DNA of 64,000 bases, from NCBI GenBank assembly GCA_048938105.1, contig JBHLMN010000018.1:72960-136959 (forward strand), read 5' to 3'. Below the pieces are notes generated by a model. It had not been told where the DNA came from, made no database searches, and worked only from the letters and a program-made list of their open reading frames with translations. The stretch comes from Promethearchaeota archaeon (lineage in GTDB: Archaea > Asgardarchaeota > Heimdallarchaeia > Hodarchaeales > Hodarchaeaceae). This document shows, piece by piece, positions 9,201-40,481 of this stretch (its first letter is position 1; each line of letters starts with the position of its first letter). The position numbers were made by a program, and so were the translations under genes.

Positions 9201-10928
9201 TTACTGATCTATCTGATTTCTTAACCTTTTTCTAAGGATTCTCCAATTAAGCACAACACATACCCCCCAGAGAAACCCCAAAACGGAAAAGGAGGCCTGG
9301 GTCGCCGTGGAGGAGGAAGGCTCAGGGGATGTCGAGGAAGGCTCAGGGTCGACAAAAACGAGCACCGTATCGTGGGTTGAGTGGTTTCCTTCATCCATGA
9401 GAACCAAGGTAAGATTATGGGTGCCTGTAGATAACCAATCTAAGGTAATAGTGAGATCAGTCGGACGCCAATACTTATCGAACGTGTGGGCACCCGATTC
9501 AATGGGTTTACCATCAAGATAGAGCGTGTATGACCCAGGCATGGTGTACCTGGTGCGGAAATTATACCAGGTCTGCCAAATGAGGTTCACAGGGTCGTTA
9601 GAGCGGACATGTAGATCAGGGGGCGCGCTGAGGATGGGGGTCAGGCGAAAGCGCTCCATCCGATAGACCCCGTACACAAACTCTTCTGAGTTGTTGAAAT
9701 CCATTTCCCAAACAATATCTCCCTCATTATTTACCTCAACTAATCTTACACCAATTATACCTGGACGTCTTATTACACCAAACGTTCCAAGGCGATTACC
9801 GTTGGGGAGGCGATCAGCATCCCCCCAATAAGGACTATAGTATTCAGCAGGAGCGCTCCAGCTCCAGGTCTCGTTGGCGGTCATGGTGGTCTCGTTAATG
9901 GTGAATTCCAAGATCTGGGATCGCCTATGTTCAGGGTTGGTCTGGTTATGCAGGTCATTGTCGAACAGGATGAACGTGTGGTCACCGACCTTCTCTACGG
10001 CGTGCGCATGGTAAAAGAGGTTGGTTCGCTCCCTCCCATAGCGATCAAAGAGGGTAAAGTTCCCGTACTCCCCTAGCCCCCATAGCACCTTCCCCGTTTT
10101 GTGATCGATCTTGTAGAATGTGTTCACATTGCGCATATTACAGTACAAAACGTCTTCCTCAGGATCCGAAAAAAGCGAATTGGTATGAGTGATATCACGT
10201 AGGCCTCTATTTAGATCCTTGAATGGGCACCACTGGGTATGGGAAATAAAAGAGTCTGTGTCTAAGGACCATACCAATTGACTCGACATATCATACTCCT
10301 CGATTCTGTCATAAACGTACTTAACTTCATTAATTTCCTTAATATATACTTGTAATGTGAGAAATGTATTATTAGCATGATTATATTCATACTCGTGATG
10401 TCCATAAAAATTAAATATCATGGTTTGATCATTATAAACATTCCACAAAGCTAAACCATCAGATTCCCCCATAATGACAGTTGTGGAATTAATAAACTCC
10501 ACATTCTGACTCTGCGATGCTCCGATTTCACTATCGTTAAAAGTTTTCTCTATGAATATCTCTCCATTCATATCAGTGATAAAAAGAACACGCTGCCTGA
10601 AATTGGGATCAGCTGGTTTACGTAATCTAAGAACAAATAAATTATAACCGTCAAAGACATTTCCAAAGAAGCTAACATTCAGAACCTCCTCTAGATAACT
10701 GTTATTCCACAATTGAAGGATTTTGTATAATAATTTACTTTCTGGATCTTCTTGTGGATCATAAAAGTTTTTATTTTCCATCTGAGGTTGATTAATGACT
10801 AATGTGACCATTAGATCACCTGTGTAAGTAAATAATGAGTTAGAAACAGAACTTGAACCTGAAATCAACAACAGAAAAAAAAATAAAATCATGTTTTTAG
10901 TCCTAAACCAAACCATAAATTTTCCCAA
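9201..10928 (-). CDS. Secreted, C-terminally anchored aryl-sulfate sulfotransferase (ASST-like beta-propeller)
   Basis: Signal peptide; GHHE, DITHTNSL, FYHAHAV, LFDND, WGDADRLPNGN, YRMER motifs; Ig-like domain, Ser/Thr linker, TM + basic tail. Confidence 0.85.
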   Translation of the reverse strand: MGKFMVWFRTKNMILFFFLLLISGSSSVSNSLFTYTGDLMVTLVINQPQMENKNFYDPQEDPESKLLYKILQLWNNSYLEEVLNVSFFGNVFDGYNLFVLRLRKPADPNFRQRVLFITDMNGEIFIEKTFNDSEIGASQSQNVEFINSTTVIMGESDGLALWNVYNDQTMIFNFYGHHEYEYNHANNTFLTLQVYIKEINEVKYVYDRIEEYDMSSQLVWSLDTDSFISHTQWCPFKDLNRGLRDITHTNSLFSDPEEDVLYCNMRNVNTFYKIDHKTGKVLWGLGEYGNFTLFDRYGRERTNLFYHAHAVEKVGDHTFILFDNDLHNQTNPEHRRSQILEFTINETTMTANETWSWSAPAEYYSPYWGDADRLPNGNRLGTFGVIRRPGIIGVRLVEVNNEGDIVWEMDFNNSEEFVYGVYRMERFRLTPILSAPPDLHVRSNDPVNLIWQTWYNFRTRYTMPGSYTLYLDGKPIESGAHTFDKYWRPTDLTITLDWLSTGTHNLTLVLMDEGNHSTHDTVLVFVDPEPSSTSPEPSSSTATQASFSVLGFLWGVCVVLNWRILRKRLRNQIDQ

Positions 10929-11281: not shown

Positions 11282-11500
11282 ATGACGTCTGCTAAAACAG
11301 TTACAATTCCAGGGGATATAATAGAAAACATTCGAAAGCGGATTAAAAAGAGTGCTTTCTCAACAGAAGAAGACTTTATAATATTTGTTTTAAGAATCCT
11401 TATGGAAGATAAGAATAAAAATTCAACTAATTCCGAGCCATTTTCCGAGGAGGAGGAAGAACGTGTCATGGAACGATTACGTGGGTTAGGTTATCTATAG
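11282..11500 (+). CDS. Small ribbon-helix-helix (CopG-like) protein with C-terminal EEEERVMERLRGLGYL motif
   Basis: N-terminal 'TVTIPGDIIENIRKRI...FSTEEDFIIFVLR' RHH pattern; acidic LxxLGY tail. Confidence 0.8.
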   Translation: MTSAKTVTIPGDIIENIRKRIKKSAFSTEEDFIIFVLRILMEDKNKNSTNSEPFSEEEEERVMERLRGLGYL

Positions 11501-12030: not shown

Positions 12031-13179
12031 GTGATAAATGACATGATTAAACTTAAGAAACAAAAATCAAGCAAATACAAAGAGTTCGACTTTCCAGCTC
12101 CAATGTACTTTATCGTGAAGTTTTTTCATGAATTCTCATTTCTCGCAAATGTTGTGCACACAGTTGAATCATTCCATCTGAAGAAAAGAATTGATAAGAT
12201 TAATATCGACAAACCAATATATATAATAGGACTAGCGAGAGCTGGAACGACAATTACTCTTGAAATGCTCAACAAGCATCCCGATGTGGCTGCGCATAGA
12301 TATTTACACATGGTTTTACCTTATACACCACATTGGACTCAAAAGGTCGCAGATTATACCCCTATAATGACATCTCCAGTAGAACGACTCCATAAAGATA
12401 GAATAGCAGTCACTCGAGATAGTCCCGAGGCAGTTGAGGAAATATTCTGGCAAAAATTTTTTAAGGATACTCATGATGAAGCTCGTTCCAACATCCTTGA
12501 TAATCTGGTTCAGAACCTACCTTTCGAATTTTTTTATCAAGATCATATAAAAAAATTACTTATTAATCGAAAAGCAACTCGCTATTTAGCCAAAAACAAT
12601 TATAACGTAGCTAGAATGGAATATCTACATAAATTATTTCCTGACTTAAAATTTATCATTATTATTCGGAATCCTTTTGATCATATCGCTTCTCTAGCCA
12701 AACAAGACAGAATTTTAAAAGAACTGGAATATGAAGATCCCCGATTACTGGATTGGACTAAGATAATCGGACATAGAGAATTCGGGACAGCGAAAGTTTG
12801 TATTAATTTTGATAATCCCAAGATAATTGAAAGAATTAGGGGTTTATGGAATCAAAAAGAGACATACATGGAAGGATGGGCTGTTTACTGGGCAGAAACT
12901 TATTCATATATTCATAAAAAATTGCAAACAAATCCAAATCTAGCTAAAGCAAGTCTAATAGTTCGTTATGAAGATCTTTGCGAAAAATCTGAGATAACGA
13001 TTGATAGAATCATCGACCATATAGAAGTGGATCCGAAAAAATTTCTCAAGATAAAAAAACTATATTCCAAACGTTTAAGAAAGCCTACTTATTATATAGC
13101 TAAATTTACTAATAAAGAACAAGAGAAAATAATTCAAATAACAGGGAAAATTGCCAAAAAGTTTGGATATGTTTTCTAA
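12031..13179 (+). CDS. PAPS-dependent sulfotransferase (Sulfotransfer_3-like), cytoplasmic
   Basis: 5'-PSB loop IIGLARAGTT, 3'-PB IIRNPFDHIASL, VRYEDL; no signal peptide. Confidence 0.9.
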   Translation: MINDMIKLKKQKSSKYKEFDFPAPMYFIVKFFHEFSFLANVVHTVESFHLKKRIDKINIDKPIYIIGLARAGTTITLEMLNKHPDVAAHRYLHMVLPYTPHWTQKVADYTPIMTSPVERLHKDRIAVTRDSPEAVEEIFWQKFFKDTHDEARSNILDNLVQNLPFEFFYQDHIKKLLINRKATRYLAKNNYNVARMEYLHKLFPDLKFIIIIRNPFDHIASLAKQDRILKELEYEDPRLLDWTKIIGHREFGTAKVCINFDNPKIIERIRGLWNQKETYMEGWAVYWAETYSYIHKKLQTNPNLAKASLIVRYEDLCEKSEITIDRIIDHIEVDPKKFLKIKKLYSKRLRKPTYYIAKFTNKEQEKIIQITGKIAKKFGYVF

Positions 13180-13229
13180 TCATATCCTAAAAGTTAAATT
13201 TATATTATTACTTCAAAGATGACGCTCTT

Positions 13230-15356
13230 ATGCGGAAATCAGTGAAAATCCTCCTAATTGCCAGTGTAATCATTGTTATCATTAGTATTCCAATAATCTT
13301 TATTATTTCTAACGTTTTGAGAATGGGGCAAAAACCTCCACCATTTACTTTAGATAATGCTCCGGAACAAATCATCATTTCCCGAAATGATATAAGAAAG
13401 AAATTAGAAAATAATACCTTTTCTTTGGAGGAAGACAGCCAGATATTCCTTGATTTTAGCCAATGGATGGCAAATAATTGTCCTGATATACTAAACTTAG
13501 TCAAGAATTGGAAACAAACAGTCCTATTTGAAATTAAAAACTCTACCTATGATATGTGGTGGATAATTGGAAATAATTCAGCTATTGTGGAAGTAGGTAC
13601 AAATCCACCTCAAAATTACGGGCTGCTTATTAAATTAGACTTCAAAACCTTCACTGAAATACTCAGACAAGAGGAAACACCATTATCAGCTTTTCTGAAA
13701 GGGAATTTGATATATGAAGGTTCTTTTGATGAAGCGCTCAAAGTTGCTGAAATTACTAATATTGTAAGTGCAACTGTAATGGACACCTATACCCCAGCTA
13801 TTCTAGGTGGGCCCACTTTTAAAATAACAGTAGATAAGAGTGAGCTATATGAAGAGGAGGGATTAACCCTCTTTCCATGCATTAGTGTCACCATTAATCC
13901 TGATCACATTGGAAAACTGCATAAATCTCTGATAGGACAGGGTTCTGTCATAATAGTGGACCAAAGAGGGAAGATAGTTGCAAAACTTGAAGATTCTTCA
14001 CATTCAGTACATGAATTCATCAATTCAACTACTGTTATGATGGGTGGACAAGAGCCTGGATATATGCAATTATGGAACTTCAAAGAGAATATTACTGAAA
14101 CACTAGAAGTACCATGTGGACACCATGATCTTGATTATAATCCAGTCTCGGACACTTTTATGGTGTTAGAGTACATCTATTTAAAGGAGAAATGGGGTAA
14201 AGACAATATCACTGTTACTTATGACCTTCTATCGGAATATAATAGGGCGGGAGAGCTAGTGTGGCAATGGGATCCCAGTATTTTTTTCCCTTTCAACGCT
14301 ACACGTTATACAAGCTTGGGTTTAAATGAAACGTTCCGCGGTGGAGCAGATTGGATGCATTCTAATAGCTTTGTCTGGGATAAGACACTTAAGGTCATTT
14401 ACTTAAATGTTCGCAATCTTGACACGATCTTGAAGATTAATTATACTACTAAAGAGGTGATTTGGGATGCTGGTCGTGGAGGGGACTTCACTTTACTTAA
14501 CAAAGTAGGAGAAGAAGTAGATACTCTCTTCTGTCATCCTCATGGTTTTGAACGGATAAGCTCTGATAGGTACATCTTATTTGATAATGACTTGTTTAAT
14601 CAATCCAATCCATCTACTATGTCAATAGAAAACTCTACTGGACACTCAAGGTTCTTAGAATTTGAAATAGACGAAGAAAACCATATTATGAGAGAGATTT
14701 GGTCATGGGTACCTTCAAATCAATCTTACTATTTCCCCGAATCAGGAGGGGATGCGGACCGTTTACCAAATGGAAATACTATAGGGATTTTTGGAGATAA
14801 GGCTTTAATTCTCAATTTACGCGATCCAGTGATTCTTACAGAAGTAACCAAAAATGGAACAATTGCTTGGGAATTACAAATACCAGGAATGAATAACACT
14901 TTCTTCTGGGTGCACCGATTAGAGAGATTTTATGCAAAACCACTTATTACCATTCATGATCAATCTATTGATTTAAGTGATGGATTTCTATGGATTAATC
15001 TTTCGACATGGAATACTTTTAAACAAGATGCAACCTTTCAAGGTATAATAAAAATAGTTGCGGATGGACAAGAGGTTTCTCAGGAATCATTTGAATTTCT
15101 GCCTCATTGGCAACCAACAACTTTCGAAATAACAGTCAATAATCTCCCATCCAATGCAAAAGCTGTTGAAATCATTATCGAAAACAATGATGGGATCAGA
15201 AATTCTGTTATTATTTATGAAAAATCACAAAACGTCCTTCTTTCATATGGCCCAGTTCTATTCCTTATAGGAAGTGTATTGGTTGCTATTCCTGTTGTTA
15301 TTGCATATGTGAAAATTAAAAGAAAGCGCGATATCCTAGAACAGAATACTGAATGA
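13230..15356 (+). CDS. SCP2 lipid-binding domain + arylsulfotransferase (ASST) fusion, membrane anchored
   Basis: N-terminal TM; SCP2 signature 'LIKLDFKTFTEILRQEETPLSAFLKGNLIYEGSFDEALK'; ASST motifs GHHD, DWMHSNS, FCHPHG, LFDND, GDADRLPNGN, HRLER; C-terminal TM + KIKRKR. Confidence 0.8.
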   Translation: MRKSVKILLIASVIIVIISIPIIFIISNVLRMGQKPPPFTLDNAPEQIIISRNDIRKKLENNTFSLEEDSQIFLDFSQWMANNCPDILNLVKNWKQTVLFEIKNSTYDMWWIIGNNSAIVEVGTNPPQNYGLLIKLDFKTFTEILRQEETPLSAFLKGNLIYEGSFDEALKVAEITNIVSATVMDTYTPAILGGPTFKITVDKSELYEEEGLTLFPCISVTINPDHIGKLHKSLIGQGSVIIVDQRGKIVAKLEDSSHSVHEFINSTTVMMGGQEPGYMQLWNFKENITETLEVPCGHHDLDYNPVSDTFMVLEYIYLKEKWGKDNITVTYDLLSEYNRAGELVWQWDPSIFFPFNATRYTSLGLNETFRGGADWMHSNSFVWDKTLKVIYLNVRNLDTILKINYTTKEVIWDAGRGGDFTLLNKVGEEVDTLFCHPHGFERISSDRYILFDNDLFNQSNPSTMSIENSTGHSRFLEFEIDEENHIMREIWSWVPSNQSYYFPESGGDADRLPNGNTIGIFGDKALILNLRDPVILTEVTKNGTIAWELQIPGMNNTFFWVHRLERFYAKPLITIHDQSIDLSDGFLWINLSTWNTFKQDATFQGIIKIVADGQEVSQESFEFLPHWQPTTFEITVNNLPSNAKAVEIIIENNDGIRNSVIIYEKSQNVLLSYGPVLFLIGSVLVAIPVVIAYVKIKRKRDILEQNTE

Positions 15357-15394: not shown

Positions 15395-17074
15395 TCAATT
15401 TGTTCGCTTTCGAAATAACAAGATTAACGAAAATCCACTTAAAAGTGAAATAAGTGGAAAATTACTTGCATTTGGATTACTGGTGCCATCAGAACCGGTT
15501 TCAGATGTCTGTGCGGATGATTCTGTTGATGAGGGTCTTGAACGGAGTTCTATTGTTACTGTGTCTTTTGCACGATTTCCAAAGATATCATCAAGTACTA
15601 AAACAATTTCAACGGTTTCATTCTTATCAGTCAATCCCAATTTGTAAGAGACCGATGATTCTTCCCATGAGCTTTGTTCCACCATTATATTCTCGACAGA
15701 AACAGAATAGTTCCATGGATTAAGATCGTATACTTCCCAGGATATTTGAACAGTCTTCTGATCCGACCATACCCAAAAATCGTCTGGACCAGTTATTTGA
15801 GGGAGATCAGTCTCATAATCAGGTTGGTTGTAATAGATGGCTTCAATCGCGTCTAATTCAACGTTTTTTTCTTCAGAAATACATTCGATCCAAATATACC
15901 TAGCAGATGTAAGCCCAACTGCTGATAGATCGAAGCTTTGATTACCACTCCCAGTTCCTAGGATAACAAAGGGACTAGTGAAATTGTTACCAACTCGAAC
16001 AAGGTAATCACCATCTCCAGCGATAACTGTAAAGTCTGATCCAGTTCCATTTATAATTTCTTGATTTAATCCCATATCCAAGACAAGATACCCATTTCCA
16101 TAATCTATGTAAATTACAGCAAGTTTATCATCGGGGGAACCAAGTGCATTCTCACCATAAAGATACCAAGTAGAAAGTCCTTCTAGAAACCAATTTGCAT
16201 AAGCATCAAGATAACCTGATGGAGGCTTTGAGCGAAGTTCTATTGTTACTGTGTCTTTTGCACGGTTTCCAAAGATATCATCAAGTATTAAAGTAATTTT
16301 AAGAGAATTATTTCTATTCATTAAATCCAAATTGTATGTAATTAGAGATTCTTCCCATGGGAGCTGTTCTACTGTTATATTCTCGACAGAAATAGAATAG
16401 TTCCATGGATTAAGATCGTATACTTCCCAGGATATTTGAACAGTCTTCTGATCCGACCACACCCAAAAATCGTCTGGACCAGTTATTTGAGGGAGATCAG
16501 TCTCATAGTCAGGTTGGTTGTAATAAATGGCTTCAATCGCATCAAGTTCAACAGTTTCTTCAGAAATACATTCGATCCAAACATACCTTGCAGAGATAAG
16601 CCCAACTGTTGAGAGATCGAAGCTTTGATTACCACTCCCAGTTCCTAGGATAACAAAGGGACTAGTGAAATTGTTACCAACTCGAACAAGGTAATCACCA
16701 TCTCCAGCGATAATTGTAAAGTCTGATCCAGTTCCATTTATGATTTCTTGCCTAAAATCCATATCTAAGACAAGATACCCATTACCATAATCTTGGTAAA
16801 TCAAAGCATAATTATTATCAGGGGGACCAAGTGCATTCTCACCATAAAGATACCAGGTGGAAAGTCCTTCAATAATGTAATTTGCATAAGCATCAAGATA
16901 ATTTTTCACTGATTGAACGCAAATAATGTCTTTAAATGAACTATACTCAATATCGGGTTGCTCTGCGACTTGTATTTTCGTCAATGAATCAATAGAATTT
17001 AACTGAATTAAGCCAACACTAGTGAAAAAAATCAAAAAGAATCCTATTGTTATATGCATAGATTTGATTTGCAT
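15395..17074 (-). CDS. Anchored cell-surface protein with two near-identical ~230-aa units
   Basis: Signal peptide; duplicated 'YLDAYAN...ALG[PS]PD...NGTGSDFT...DDIFGNRAKDTVTIELRS'; Ser/Thr linker, TM, RKR tail. Confidence 0.8.
   Translation of the reverse strand: MQIKSMHITIGFFLIFFTSVGLIQLNSIDSLTKIQVAEQPDIEYSSFKDIICVQSVKNYLDAYANYIIEGLSTWYLYGENALGPPDNNYALIYQDYGNGYLVLDMDFRQEIINGTGSDFTIIAGDGDYLVRVGNNFTSPFVILGTGSGNQSFDLSTVGLISARYVWIECISEETVELDAIEAIYYNQPDYETDLPQITGPDDFWVWSDQKTVQISWEVYDLNPWNYSISVENITVEQLPWEESLITYNLDLMNRNNSLKITLILDDIFGNRAKDTVTIELRSKPPSGYLDAYANWFLEGLSTWYLYGENALGSPDDKLAVIYIDYGNGYLVLDMGLNQEIINGTGSDFTVIAGDGDYLVRVGNNFTSPFVILGTGSGNQSFDLSAVGLTSARYIWIECISEEKNVELDAIEAIYYNQPDYETDLPQITGPDDFWVWSDQKTVQISWEVYDLNPWNYSVSVENIMVEQSSWEESSVSYKLGLTDKNETVEIVLVLDDIFGNRAKDTVTIELRSRPSSTESSAQTSETGSDGTSNPNASNFPLISLLSGFSLILLFRKRTN
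15545..16900. repeat. Intragenic tandem duplication, two copies of ~690 bp
   Basis: Long identical DNA runs (e.g. ttccatggattaagatcgtatacttcccaggatatttgaacagtcttctgatccgacca) recur ~690 bp apart. Confidence 0.9.
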
Positions 17075-20277: not shown

Positions 20278-20427
20278 TTAGAATGCAGAAGATGCGATTT
20301 CTTTTGCTAGTCCATGCTTCGTTTCTGTTTCAGAATCTGGAGGTGTCACTGCATTGAGGGGACCGTTATAGTTTAAATAATCGATAGTAATCTGAAGCTC
20401 TTCTTGTGTAATAAGTTGATGAGACAC
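20278..20427 (-). CDS. Unannotated 49-aa peptide (paralog B): MSHQLITQEELQITIDYLNYNGPLNAVTPPDSETETKHGLAKEIASSAF
   Basis: GTG start after GTGAGG SD-like site; ungapped similarity to the adjacent 49-aa ORF. Confidence 0.65.
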   Translation of the reverse strand: MSHQLITQEELQITIDYLNYNGPLNAVTPPDSETETKHGLAKEIASSAF

Positions 20428-20560
20428 CGAGATCCTCACGGATAGTAATTACCAAAATTAAATGTTAAATAGATGAGTGACACGCTTGTAATACACATCC
20501 TCGGGGAAGTAATTCCTTTTTGGAATCCATACATAACAAGAGGAAAACTGAAAAGAGATT

Positions 20561-20710
20561 CTAGAGAGATTCGGTTTCAGAAGAAAAAGTAACCCTTTGT
20601 TTATCAGCTGATTCGAGATTAGATGGGATATTAACAAACAATGGACCGTTGAAATTAAGATATTCAATGATTGCATTAAGCTGGTGATAAAGAGAAGGTT
20701 CATGAGTCAT
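20561..20710 (-). CDS. Unannotated 49-aa peptide (paralog A): MTHEPSLYHQLNAIIEYLNFNGPLFVNIPSNLESADKQRVTFSSETESL
   Basis: ATG..TAG; 14/49 ungapped identities with 20278..20427 including YLN[FY]NGPL. Confidence 0.65.
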   Translation of the reverse strand: MTHEPSLYHQLNAIIEYLNFNGPLFVNIPSNLESADKQRVTFSSETESL

Positions 20711-37518: not shown

Positions 37519-38967
37519 ATGACAATTTCATCAACGAAGACATTGGAGGGACAAATAGAAGCCTTTGGCAAGCTATCTGGATATCCAAGAGAATGGGTCG
37601 ATAGAACCAAAAACGTACCTACGGATCTATATTCAATAGATGGCGAGAACCTTAACGAATTACAACTGAAATGGGTCAGACGCGCGTTTGAGTACTTCCG
37701 ACCGCGAGTGAAAGCGTTAGAGAAACTAGCGGAAGAACAAAACATCAGTAGGATTGAGAGCTTGGATGACGTGGTACCAGTGTTGTTCCAACACACAGCA
37801 TATAAGTCGTATCCGTTGAGTCTGATTGAGAAAAAACGGTATGGATTGTTAACTAAATGGTTAGACAAGTTCACGACACATGACCTGTCAGGATGCTATA
37901 ACATCCAAGCGAAAAGCATAGATGACTGGTTAGACCAAGTGGAAGCAAAAACGGATTTATTGGTAGTACATTCATCGGGAACCTCGGGAAAACTGTCATT
38001 CCTACCCCGAAGTCAGAGTGAGATGACGAACTACGTTAATGGGTTCTTCATGATGTTAGAACTCCAGAATGGAATAAATTTCCATGAAACGAAGATGCCA
38101 TTCATAGCACCTGTCTTTCGAGGGGGTAGACAACTCGCTCAACGGGTCTGCTCATTAATAGGGCCAATCATAGCAGGTGGCGAAGACAACTTTGTCACGG
38201 CGTATGACTTCCCCATGAGTGCAGATTTCCTCTCATTAGCTGGGAGATTGAAAGCAGCGAAAGCAAAAGGGGAACTAGGCAAACTTCAGTTGATCAAAGC
38301 GATGACGTGGAACAAGGGTGAACTGATCCGCATGAAGAAAGCGCAACCGAAAGCAATGGAAAATTTCTTCCACCGAATAACTACAGAATATGGGGGGCGA
38401 CAGATCTTCTTGCTCGGGACATGGAATATGCTGGTAGAACCCGCACTGCAAGGGATCAAGAAAGGGATCAAGAACGTTTTTGCCCCAACCTCCGCAATAC
38501 TTACTGGCGGGGGGATGAAAGGCGCAGTCTACCCTGAAGGGTGGTATGAAAAGACCTGTGAGTTCTGGGGATTCAAACAGATACGTGATGCATATGGGAT
38601 GACAGAGACTACAGGTGGAGGTGCAGCATTGTGTGAATACAATGGGTACCATATTCCTCCATTTCATGTCCCATTTGTCCTGAATCCAGACACAGGAGAA
38701 GCATACCCCCGAGAAGGGATACGTACAGGGCGTTTCGCATTCTATGATCTCCTCACCGAGACATATTGGGGTGGATTCATCACTGGAGATAAAGTAACGA
38801 TCCATTGGGACACCTGTAAGTGTGGTTTGAAAGGACCCTGGCTAGAAAACAATATCATCCGTTATAGCGAGGAAAAAGGGGGTGATGATAAGATCAGCTG
38901 TGCTGGTGTCCATGAAGCGCACGACAATTTATTAGATTTCCTCCTTGAAGGCGATGAGGAGGTTTAG
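37519..38967 (+). CDS. luxE: LuxE-like acyl-protein synthetase (ANL superfamily)
   Basis: VPVLFQHTAYK, SSGTSGK, LTGGGMKG, YGMTE, FITGD, C-terminal 'KISCAG' Cys; adjacent to luxC. Confidence 0.7.
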   Translation: MTISSTKTLEGQIEAFGKLSGYPREWVDRTKNVPTDLYSIDGENLNELQLKWVRRAFEYFRPRVKALEKLAEEQNISRIESLDDVVPVLFQHTAYKSYPLSLIEKKRYGLLTKWLDKFTTHDLSGCYNIQAKSIDDWLDQVEAKTDLLVVHSSGTSGKLSFLPRSQSEMTNYVNGFFMMLELQNGINFHETKMPFIAPVFRGGRQLAQRVCSLIGPIIAGGEDNFVTAYDFPMSADFLSLAGRLKAAKAKGELGKLQLIKAMTWNKGELIRMKKAQPKAMENFFHRITTEYGGRQIFLLGTWNMLVEPALQGIKKGIKNVFAPTSAILTGGGMKGAVYPEGWYEKTCEFWGFKQIRDAYGMTETTGGGAALCEYNGYHIPPFHVPFVLNPDTGEAYPREGIRTGRFAFYDLLTETYWGGFITGDKVTIHWDTCKCGLKGPWLENNIIRYSEEKGGDDKISCAGVHEAHDNLLDFLLEGDEEV

Positions 38968-39017
38968 AGCTCATCCTTCTCACTTTTTTTCCATCTTGAA
39001 TTAATGGTGACTTATTA

Positions 39018-40481
39018 ATGCAATTATTAAATGGAAAACCAAAAACTACGGTAGAACTACTAGAATATCAAGTCCCTATCATCACACGAGGAACAATTAT
39101 TGATGATTATACACTCACTTTTGGAGGACGATATGGGTCAGCGAGGTTTGTGATCCCTGATCCACAAAAGTTTCTGTCAAAAATCGTGTTGAAAAATCCC
39201 TCCAGATTAAAAGATCTGTATGATTTGAGTATTGAAGAAATCCTAGAATTCATGGATGACCTGGGACAACGAATGGTTCTCAAGGAGAATAGATTTCTTC
39301 AAGAAGCCTTTCTGCTTAATTGTGAGGCTTCGGGCTTGACAAAAAGCGTGTTGCTTACCACTTATCAGGCATTACCCATGTTTTTGTCCAAGGGGTTTCT
39401 TCGTGAGATGTTAGAGAAGCGAATAGGGATCAACTACTTAGAAAACTGGGTTCCGACTAAGTTGAATGATGGTCGAACAGTCTCGATCAGAGCATTTGGA
39501 GCTCGAACTGCACACATTATAGCAGGAAACGTGCCCCTAGTTGCTGCTGGCACCTTGGCACGAAGTTGCTGTACACGATGTGATACGATCATCAAATTGC
39601 CATCAAACGATCCACTGACAGCAATCGCATTGGCTCAAACCATGATTGAGATGGAACCTAACCATCCCATCACAAAACACGTAACTGTACTGTATTACAA
39701 AGGAGGGGATACAGAGTTTGAAACTGCGTTCTATCAACCCGAAAATATTGATAAGATCATTGCATGGGGTGGATTCGCCTCGGTGAAACATATCACTAAG
39801 TACCTCCAACCAGGAATTGACCTAATCACCTTGGATCCGAAACTAAGCATGTCAATTATTGGAGCGGAAGCTTTTCGCAACGAGGAAACGCTAAGGACTG
39901 CTGCACAGCGTGCTGCGTTAGATATTGGGGCGTATAATCAAGAGGCGTGTGTGAACAGTCGTGTAATCTATGTGCAATCAGGAACTAATAATGAGGGAAT
40001 TGCTAACCTGAACCAATTCGGGGCATACTTATACTATTCATTAGTGAATCTCCCACAATATTTGTCAACACCTGCGAAAACCTTTAACTTAAACCTGAAA
40101 GCTGAAATAGATGGACTTAGGATAGATGAGGACTTCTACAGAGTAATAGGTGGAGAACATAACGAAGGAGCAGTGATTGTGAGTCAGATTGATGAACCAG
40201 TGGACTTTTCTCAGAAACTGTGTGGGCGTGTGGTGAATCTTGTCCCCATTGACGATTTGACAACTGCTGTGAAATCAGTGAACGCCTATACACAAACTGT
40301 AGGCATTTACCCCGAATATTTAAAACAACAAATCCGTGATGACTTAATCCGTCACGGAGTTCAACGTATAGTGTCGTTGGGGTATGCTGCAGCAGCAAGT
40401 TTTGCTACTCCACAGGATTCGATCGAACCATTAAGGCGTATGTGCAAGTGGGTAATGGATGAGCAATCTGTGCCATGTTAA
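39018..40481 (+). CDS. luxC: LuxC-like acyl-CoA/acyl-protein reductase
   Basis: HIIAGNVP, IKLPSNDP, IAWGG, DPKLS, NQEACVNSR catalytic Cys, TQTVGIYP, GVQRIVSLG. Confidence 0.9.
   Translation: MQLLNGKPKTTVELLEYQVPIITRGTIIDDYTLTFGGRYGSARFVIPDPQKFLSKIVLKNPSRLKDLYDLSIEEILEFMDDLGQRMVLKENRFLQEAFLLNCEASGLTKSVLLTTYQALPMFLSKGFLREMLEKRIGINYLENWVPTKLNDGRTVSIRAFGARTAHIIAGNVPLVAAGTLARSCCTRCDTIIKLPSNDPLTAIALAQTMIEMEPNHPITKHVTVLYYKGGDTEFETAFYQPENIDKIIAWGGFASVKHITKYLQPGIDLITLDPKLSMSIIGAEAFRNEETLRTAAQRAALDIGAYNQEACVNSRVIYVQSGTNNEGIANLNQFGAYLYYSLVNLPQYLSTPAKTFNLNLKAEIDGLRIDEDFYRVIGGEHNEGAVIVSQIDEPVDFSQKLCGRVVNLVPIDDLTTAVKSVNAYTQTVGIYPEYLKQQIRDDLIRHGVQRIVSLGYAAAASFATPQDSIEPLRRMCKWVMDEQSVPC

Follow-up and report, generated by a model that had tools for sequence, protein, structure and literature searches.

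In a 64,000-nt window of a Promethearchaeota archaeon genome (G000:C28:72960-136959; in our labels, G stands for genome, C for contig, L for locus, f for family and g for genus), two adjacent genes encode a cytoplasmic sulfotransferase (ST) of the 3'-phosphoadenosine-5'-phosphosulfate (PAPS)-dependent type and a predicted surface protein in which an SCP2 domain precedes the β-propeller of an arylsulfate sulfotransferase (ASST). The SCP2-ASST fusion is a real, undescribed domain fusion in a conserved module, and the pair is best explained as a two-enzyme, Asgard-specific sulfation module that straddles the membrane. The window genome is 5.85 Mb in size, 99% complete and has a G+C content of ~35%; the homologues of the window proteins bear the names Hodarchaeales, Heimdall-, Thor-, Odin- and Promethearchaeota. 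The window itself forms a surface- and glycan-gene island; encoded near the pair are a flippase, an acetyltransferase, a deacetylase and a PMT_2 glycosyltransferase. Coordinates are window positions unless another contig or locus is named. The pair consists of the following features.

12031..13179 (+): cytoplasmic PAPS-type sulfotransferase (Sulfotransfer_3, 5e-22; Sulfotransfer_1, 2e-8)
13180..13229 (+): intergenic gap of 50 bp, with a TATA-like element, TTTATATT, read directly ~27 nt before the ATG of the fusion gene
13230..15356 (+): SCP2-ASST fusion, 708 aa, predicted from Pfam, hydropathy and the structural model to be anchored at both ends with its bulk outside the cell
13230..13328 (+): N-terminal signal-anchor helix, residues 1-33 (residues 1-34 by hydropathy; helix 2-33 in the model)
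13365..13778 (+): SCP2 domain, residues 46-183 (PF02036, domain model and Foldseek)
13938..14933 (+): ASST β-propeller, residues 237-568, with H298/H299, H377, R395 and H438 (PF05935 and Foldseek)
14943..15221 (+): C-terminal seven-stranded β-sandwich, residues 572-664, a putative Ig-like stalk (DSSP of the model, predicted local distance difference test score (pLDDT) 96-97)
15228..15320 (+): C-terminal transmembrane (TM) anchor, residues 667-697, followed by the basic cytoplasmic tail KIKRKRD (hydropathy)

The open reading frame (ORF) of the ST opens at GTG 12031, and the gene-called, likely start at ATG 12043 yields a protein of 378 aa. It matches Sulfotransfer_3 (PF13469) with 79.7 bits against a cut-off of 27, and contains neither TM segments nor sequons. 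The 5'-phosphosulfate-binding motif GLARAGTT (G-x-x-R-x-G-T-T) and the 3'-phosphate-binding motif RNP..IAS are kept invariant across 14 orthologues, of which the most divergent shares 48% identity, and align with those of protein-tyrosine (TPST) and heparan-sulfate sulfotransferase chains. The cofactor could be supplied by the cell itself, as the window genome encodes an ATP sulfurylase (SAT, 1.4e-87) and an adenosine-5'-phosphosulfate kinase (APSK, 2.8e-59), both on contig C52. The binding motifs, the presence of SAT and APSK and the lack of TM segments bear out an initial annotation of the window, which had read the first ORF as a cytoplasmic PAPS-type sulfotransferase.

The same annotation had assigned to the second ORF, 50 bp downstream on the same strand, the order TM, SCP2, ASST, Ig and TM. 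Pfam, hydropathy and the full-length model (pLDDT 89.3, predicted template-modelling score 0.72) yield the same order, in which only the Ig domain has to be qualified: the model indeed contains a seven-stranded β-sandwich at this position, but no Pfam family matches residues 572-664, and the domain is Ig-like by its secondary structure only. The fusion contains 15 sequons compared to 6.7 expected (Poisson tail 0.004), and the 18 orthologues analyzed contain 255 compared to 116 expected, a 2.2-fold excess; moreover, both TM anchors and the basic tail recur in these 18 orthologues. The two anchors, the basic tail and the sequon excess, set against the absence of sequons from the ST, predict that the bulk of the fusion, including the SCP2 domain, faces outward, as had been argued before from the richness in sequons. 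Only ~12 residues separate the membrane helix from the SCP2 domain.

In a scan of the whole protein, the SCP2 family (PF02036) matches residues 85-175 with 21.1 bits, 0.2 under the cut-off of 21.3, and the score rises to 25.1 bits if the domain is scanned alone. All of the orthologous domains match PF02036 (27/27, best E 6.5e-10), three of which also match Alkyl_sulf_C. Structural similarity search with the domain model (pLDDT 91) against the PDB using Foldseek revealed that the top 45 hits are all SCP2 domains, including those of yeast and human SCP2, SdsA1, Pisa1 and UbiJ. The sequence matches and the predicted structure together confirm a true SCP2 α/β fold for residues ~70-180, a segment whose failure to fold as SCP2 would have spoken against the initial proposal. 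Prediction of the complex between the SCP2 domain and the propeller gave scores of 0.02, 0.54 and 0.02, which are evidence neither way. Besides the fusions, free SCP2-like ORFs of ~139 aa are present in fusion-negative genomes of families f20 and f21 (e.g. G145:C43:4587-4955), with a weak match to the SCP2 region of the fusion (E 1e-6 to 1e-8).

The alkylsulfatases SdsA1 and Pisa1 (PDB 2cfu and 2yhe) also possess an SCP2-like domain on an enzyme acting on sulfate esters, which superimposes on that of the fusion with a TM-score of ~0.5 and a RMSD of 2.6-2.9 over 107-115 columns. By contrast, they are hydrolases of the metallo-β-lactamase type with the SCP2 domain at the C-terminus, whereas the Asgard protein has a transferase propeller and an N-terminal SCP2 domain next to the membrane anchor. 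This resemblance, together with the orthologues that match Alkyl_sulf_C, raises the alternative that the SCP2 domain recruits exogenous hydrophobic sulfate esters, from which the ASST would move the sulfate for detoxification or sulfur acquisition, in a process unrelated to the ST. The presence of the sequence in sediment and mangrove metagenome runs would fit such a supply from outside, and the natural donors, acceptors and roles of most ASSTs are unknown (PMC13426309). However, the linkage of the fusion to the ST and to genes of PAPS synthesis, described below, points to biosynthesis, and the double anchoring suits a membrane-resident substrate. In addition, we know of no alkyl sulfate that serves as an ASST donor, and we regard this alternative as very improbable.

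The propeller was assigned to Arylsulfotrans (PF05935) at residues 237-543 with an E-value of 5.5e-24 and 85.3 bits against a cut-off of 24.2. Foldseek search with the model of the fusion found Cpz4 of the caprazamycin pathway as the best match (PDB 9kf4, 1.2e-21), followed by E. coli ASST (PDB 3elq, 9e-15), both with a probability of 1.0, and a profile of the fusion family gave the same order (Cpz4, 2.8e-24; E. coli ASST, 4e-10). Similar to E. coli ASST (PDB 3elq and 4p04), the Asgard protein has an extracytoplasmic β-propeller, as predicted here, with a His nucleophile in register and the WxHxNS and Arg motifs. The two share only ~15% identity, and E. coli ASST, which is soluble and forms a dimer in the periplasm, lacks the SCP2 domain, the TM anchors and the β-sandwich.

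E. coli ASST works by a ping-pong mechanism. Its active site contains, in addition to the nucleophile, residues which we take to be His252, His356 and Arg374. Across 26 fusions from four Asgard families, residues H298, H299, H377, R395 and H438 do not vary. H377, in WMHSNS, is matched to WAHVNS, and R395 to the Arg of SSRHQ, whereas H299 aligns with the His of the Cpz4 motif LHD and is linked to E. coli His252 via Cpz4 only, the two not being aligned directly. The initial annotation had noticed two His motifs in the propeller but no clear equivalent of E. coli His436, the residue that is transiently sulfated (bioRxiv 10.64898/2026.10.08.757636). This caveat is now resolved by His438 (codon 14541-14543), which lies within CHPHGFERISSDRYILFDND, 15 residues before an FDN motif, a spacing identical to that of His436. 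In the profile search His438 also aligns with the His of Cpz4 'WQHDV'; a single-sequence phmmer search against the PDB places this region out of register, whereas the profile search sets the register right. Together with the topology signals, these alignments support an outward-facing ASST with a probably complete set of catalytic residues. Four further candidates for fusion-specific histidines, H231, H258, H261 and H576, were rejected, as they are seen in close orthologues but not kept across the 26 fusions.

Of 399 Asgard genomes searched with the N-terminal region, 38 contain the fusion, in frames of ~700 aa, and these belong to four families, namely f1, the window's own family, f4, f7 and the Thor-type f31. 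In a tree computed on the ASST columns only, 26 fusions form one clade with a support of 100, which is nested among SCP2-less Asgard ASSTs; the fusion therefore arose once. The window's own group nests inside the f31 sequences, and the fusion is present in only 6 of the 21 genomes of the window's genus (g1), a pattern that suggests transfer of the ST-fusion cassette between Asgard lineages. The novelty of the architecture, as presumed at the outset, is consistent with the searchable literature, in which SCP2 and ASST are not treated together in any paper that we found, and which yielded nothing on arylsulfotransferases, or on sulfotransferases together with sulfated products, of Asgard archaea; a 2026 review of ASST enzymes mentions neither archaea nor SCP2. 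The architecture is also in no large ESM Atlas cluster, where bacterial ASSTs are found fused to CBM_4_9, Dockerin or Por_Secre_tail modules.

Two genomes carry altered copies of these genes. In the closed 4.9-Mb genome G067 (L016 / L020), the fusion gene is cut at ~482 aa, leaving residues 1-247 of the 425-residue ASST domain, and is followed by a Ras-family gene, whereas the ST is intact; the short fusion gene is probably a pseudogene. Genome G030 has the cassette twice, and in one of these the ST has decayed: the second ST copy, beside the second fusion copy (G030:C32:1-671, L036), contains in-frame stop codons.

The linkage of the two genes extends beyond the window, which the initial annotation had named as a point on which its proposal could fail. 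Of the roughly 40 loci examined, about 24 have the ST directly beside the fusion, and the arrangements are of three kinds, spread over four families. The tandem order with the ST first is found in f1, in genus g79 of f31 and on an Odin-labelled contig, a head-to-head arrangement in genus g9 of f4 and in G388, and the order with the fusion first in G014. In G082 the two genes are separated by 4.5 kb, a stretch that contains another ASST. Links to PAPS synthesis are also seen: L012 has a row of ST, fusion, SAT and APSK genes, and in G386 the distance from the fusion to SAT and APSK is 5 kb.

Co-occurrence was computed for the 64 genomes of f1, f4 and f7. The ST is present in 13 of them, all among the 17 fusion carriers, and in 0 of the 47 fusion-negative genomes, ~20 of which have other ASSTs. 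The distribution of the ST thus follows that of the SCP2 fusion, not that of ASSTs at large.

Linkage and co-occurrence bear on the possibility that the two enzymes are not directly coupled at all, but act as independent envelope decorators within a surface-glycan island. The gene content of the window is in line with this possibility, as are the separation of the pair in genus g78 and the occurrence of the ST alone in f20, both described below; in addition, a separate promoter for the fusion gene is suggested by the TATA-like element that precedes it. By contrast, the adjacency has outlasted three rearrangements across four families, and the flanks vary by lineage (HSP90, helix-turn-helix or SAT-APSK genes) while the ST-fusion pair persists. 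Independent decorators would also hardly leave the ST missing from every fusion-negative genome of f1, f4 and f7. We consider the lack of any direct coupling improbable, and that the ST and the fusion take part in one envelope-sulfation pathway, acting on a lipid- or membrane-borne substrate, is what we hold to be probable.

A precedent for such a pathway is the caprazamycin relay of Streptomyces sp. MK730-62F2, in which the PAPS-dependent Cpz8 makes aryl sulfates that are the donors for the ASST Cpz4 (PMC4257720). Similarly, the Asgard pair encodes a PAPS-dependent ST together with a PAPS-independent ASST, and Cpz4 (PDB 9kf4 and 9kf6), the best structural and profile match of the Asgard propeller, is of the same ASST subtype. 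Compared to Cpz4, the Asgard ASST is predicted to be membrane-anchored outside the cell and has an SCP2 domain, and its host is an Asgard archaeon.

By analogy, the Sulfotransfer_3 enzyme may sulfate a membrane-borne or lipophilic molecule inside the cell, using PAPS made by the cell's own SAT and APSK. The sulfated lipophilic carrier would then flip across the membrane, where the SCP2 domain, held close to the bilayer by its short linker, could extract the lipid-borne substrate from the outer leaflet and present it to the ASST propeller. His438 would take up the sulfuryl group by a ping-pong mechanism and pass it to a surface acceptor, which could be a glycan, a lipid or a protein. The outcome would be sulfation outside the cell with PAPS never exported. 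In this scheme, we infer that the ST product is the ASST donor, as well as its crossing of the membrane and the identity of the carrier and the acceptor. That the ST charges a lipophilic carrier inside, which the SCP2-ASST discharges outside through His438, is favoured because the ST is linked to, and tracks, the fusion, and because of the Cpz8/Cpz4 precedent; our preference is a tentative one, somewhat short of an even chance. The more specific version, a trans-membrane Cpz8/Cpz4 relay in which a lipid carrier, comparable in role to dolichol in glycosylation, is flipped, extracted by SCP2 and relieved of its sulfate by the ASST in favour of surface glycans or lipids, is a little more doubtful.

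Several observations weigh against the transfer of sulfate from the ST product to the ASST. The related genomes are non-independent and adjacent genes co-travel, so the co-occurrence in f1, f4 and f7 reflects a maintained cassette and is no statistical proof. Orthologues of the ST, 47-52% identical and with the same invariant residues, are present in 53 of 135 f20 genomes, in which the fusion is absent, and three of the five f20 genomes checked lack any ASST. There the ST is located in glycan-type clusters with GT2 glycosyltransferase, UDP-galactopyranose mutase (GLF), polysaccharide deacetylase, hexapeptide acyltransferase and B12-radical S-adenosylmethionine protein genes. This context points to a glycan as the substrate and indicates that the ST makes a product that stands by itself, which may be a sugar sulfate and quite possibly a lipid-linked one; on general chemical grounds, sugar sulfates would be poor ASST donors. 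In genus g78 the fusion and the ST are on different contigs, with the ST in a SAT-APSK-ST operon, and no ST was found within 8 kb of the divergent fusion L075. Moreover, caprazamycin belongs to a bacterial secondary-metabolite pathway in which the type III polyketide synthase Cpz6 makes the carrier, whereas no match to a type III polyketide synthase (PF02797), the equivalent of Cpz6, was found in the 99%-complete window genome. No carrier-biosynthesis or transporter gene is conserved beside the pair, and the SCP2 domain could equally hold the acceptor.

The last point, together with the glycan clusters of f20, leads to the alternative that two sulfations follow one another. Inside the cell, the ST would sulfate a glycolipid or a lipid-linked glycan. 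Once flipped, this product, or another lipid-linked glycan, would be held by its lipid tail in the SCP2 domain as the acceptor, and the ASST would add a second sulfate to it outside. The donor would be a separate aryl sulfate, which could come from the sediment or be brought out of the cell, perhaps by a transporter of the TauE type. The flippase, acetyltransferase, deacetylase and PMT_2 genes near the pair are consistent with a lipid-linked glycan, and the CBM_4_9 and Dockerin modules of bacterial ASSTs are binding and anchoring modules of the acceptor type. In addition, Cpz4 itself sulfates a sugar hydroxyl (PMC13426309), and a gene for a TauE-family transporter directly follows the pair in L013 and L014. 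The position of this transporter gene is not conserved, however, its homologue in the window genome being on contig C42, away from the pair, and no source of an aryl-sulfate donor was identified. Taken alone, successive sulfation also leaves unexplained why, in f1, f4 and f7, the ST keeps company with the fusion rather than with other ASSTs. We rate it as less likely than not, though a close rival, and prefer the transfer of sulfate from a carrier charged by the ST.

Prokaryotes lack a PAPS transporter of the Golgi type, and the route by which their sulfate reaches extracytoplasmic targets is largely unexplored. The module is a testable candidate for such a route: a predicted, catalytically complete ASST at the outer face of the membrane, with a built-in lipid-binding domain and genetically linked to a PAPS-dependent enzyme and to the synthesis of PAPS. 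Its hosts belong to the archaeal lineage that is nearest to eukaryotes, and hardly anything is known of the envelope chemistry of this lineage. If the sulfate is indeed handed from the ST to the ASST, the module would bring sulfate across a membrane by means of a lipid carrier. If not, the fusion would still be an undescribed architecture; it would likely be a sulfotransferase acting on lipids or glycolipids, and it might serve as a biocatalyst that sulfates hydrophobic acceptors without PAPS.

Three genes flank the pair in the window.

9201..10928 (-): second extracellular ASST of 575 aa, which lacks SCP2 and is transcribed divergently from the pair (PF05935, 2.2e-25)
11282..11500 (+): 72-aa acidic protein ending in RLRGLGYL, upstream of the ST, with homologues beside ST and PAPS genes
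15395..17074 (-): surface-anchored protein with two nearly identical copies of a ~240-290-aa unit (internal duplication), convergent with the fusion gene

The second ASST has hydrophobic segments at its N- and C-terminus and possesses the catalytic motifs, and in the tree it belongs to a different ASST clade from the fusion. The window genome has seven ASST genes in all. Asgard ASST homologues of about 1000-1060 aa also exist as a class.

The 72-aa protein belongs to a group of small acidic proteins of 68-87 aa that end in RLxxLGY(L/M), for which no match to a Pfam family was found. Two paralogues are encoded directly upstream of SAT (C52:220838-221041 and C52:221291-221491, both on the reverse strand), another homologue adjoins APSK in L054 / G386 (L054:1035-1232), and an 87-aa homologue lies upstream of the ST in L013 (L013:3310-3573) and L014. 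Their placement links the pair once more to the PAPS genes, and these proteins could be a common regulator of sulfation genes.

In L013, L015 and the P0160 locus, the corresponding place, again convergent with the fusion gene, is taken by a homologue of the surface-anchored protein with a single unit. Contig C27 encodes a 779-aa ASST paralogue that also has a C-terminal segment related to this protein.

No small hydrophobic ORF is present between or beside the ST-fusion pair in the window. Two 49-aa peptides encoded at 20278-20710 were considered as Tyr-bearing carriers and rejected, as they are not hydrophobic. This region of the reverse strand contains tandem ORFs of 49-53 aa with a common YLN[FY]NGPL motif, and 49-aa ORFs take the same syntenic position in L014 and L015. 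Further along the window, the G+C content peaks at 0.445 (compared to ~0.35) at 38001-40000, a segment that covers a 482-aa unannotated ORF and the start of a gene for a LuxC-type acyl-CoA reductase (39018-40481).

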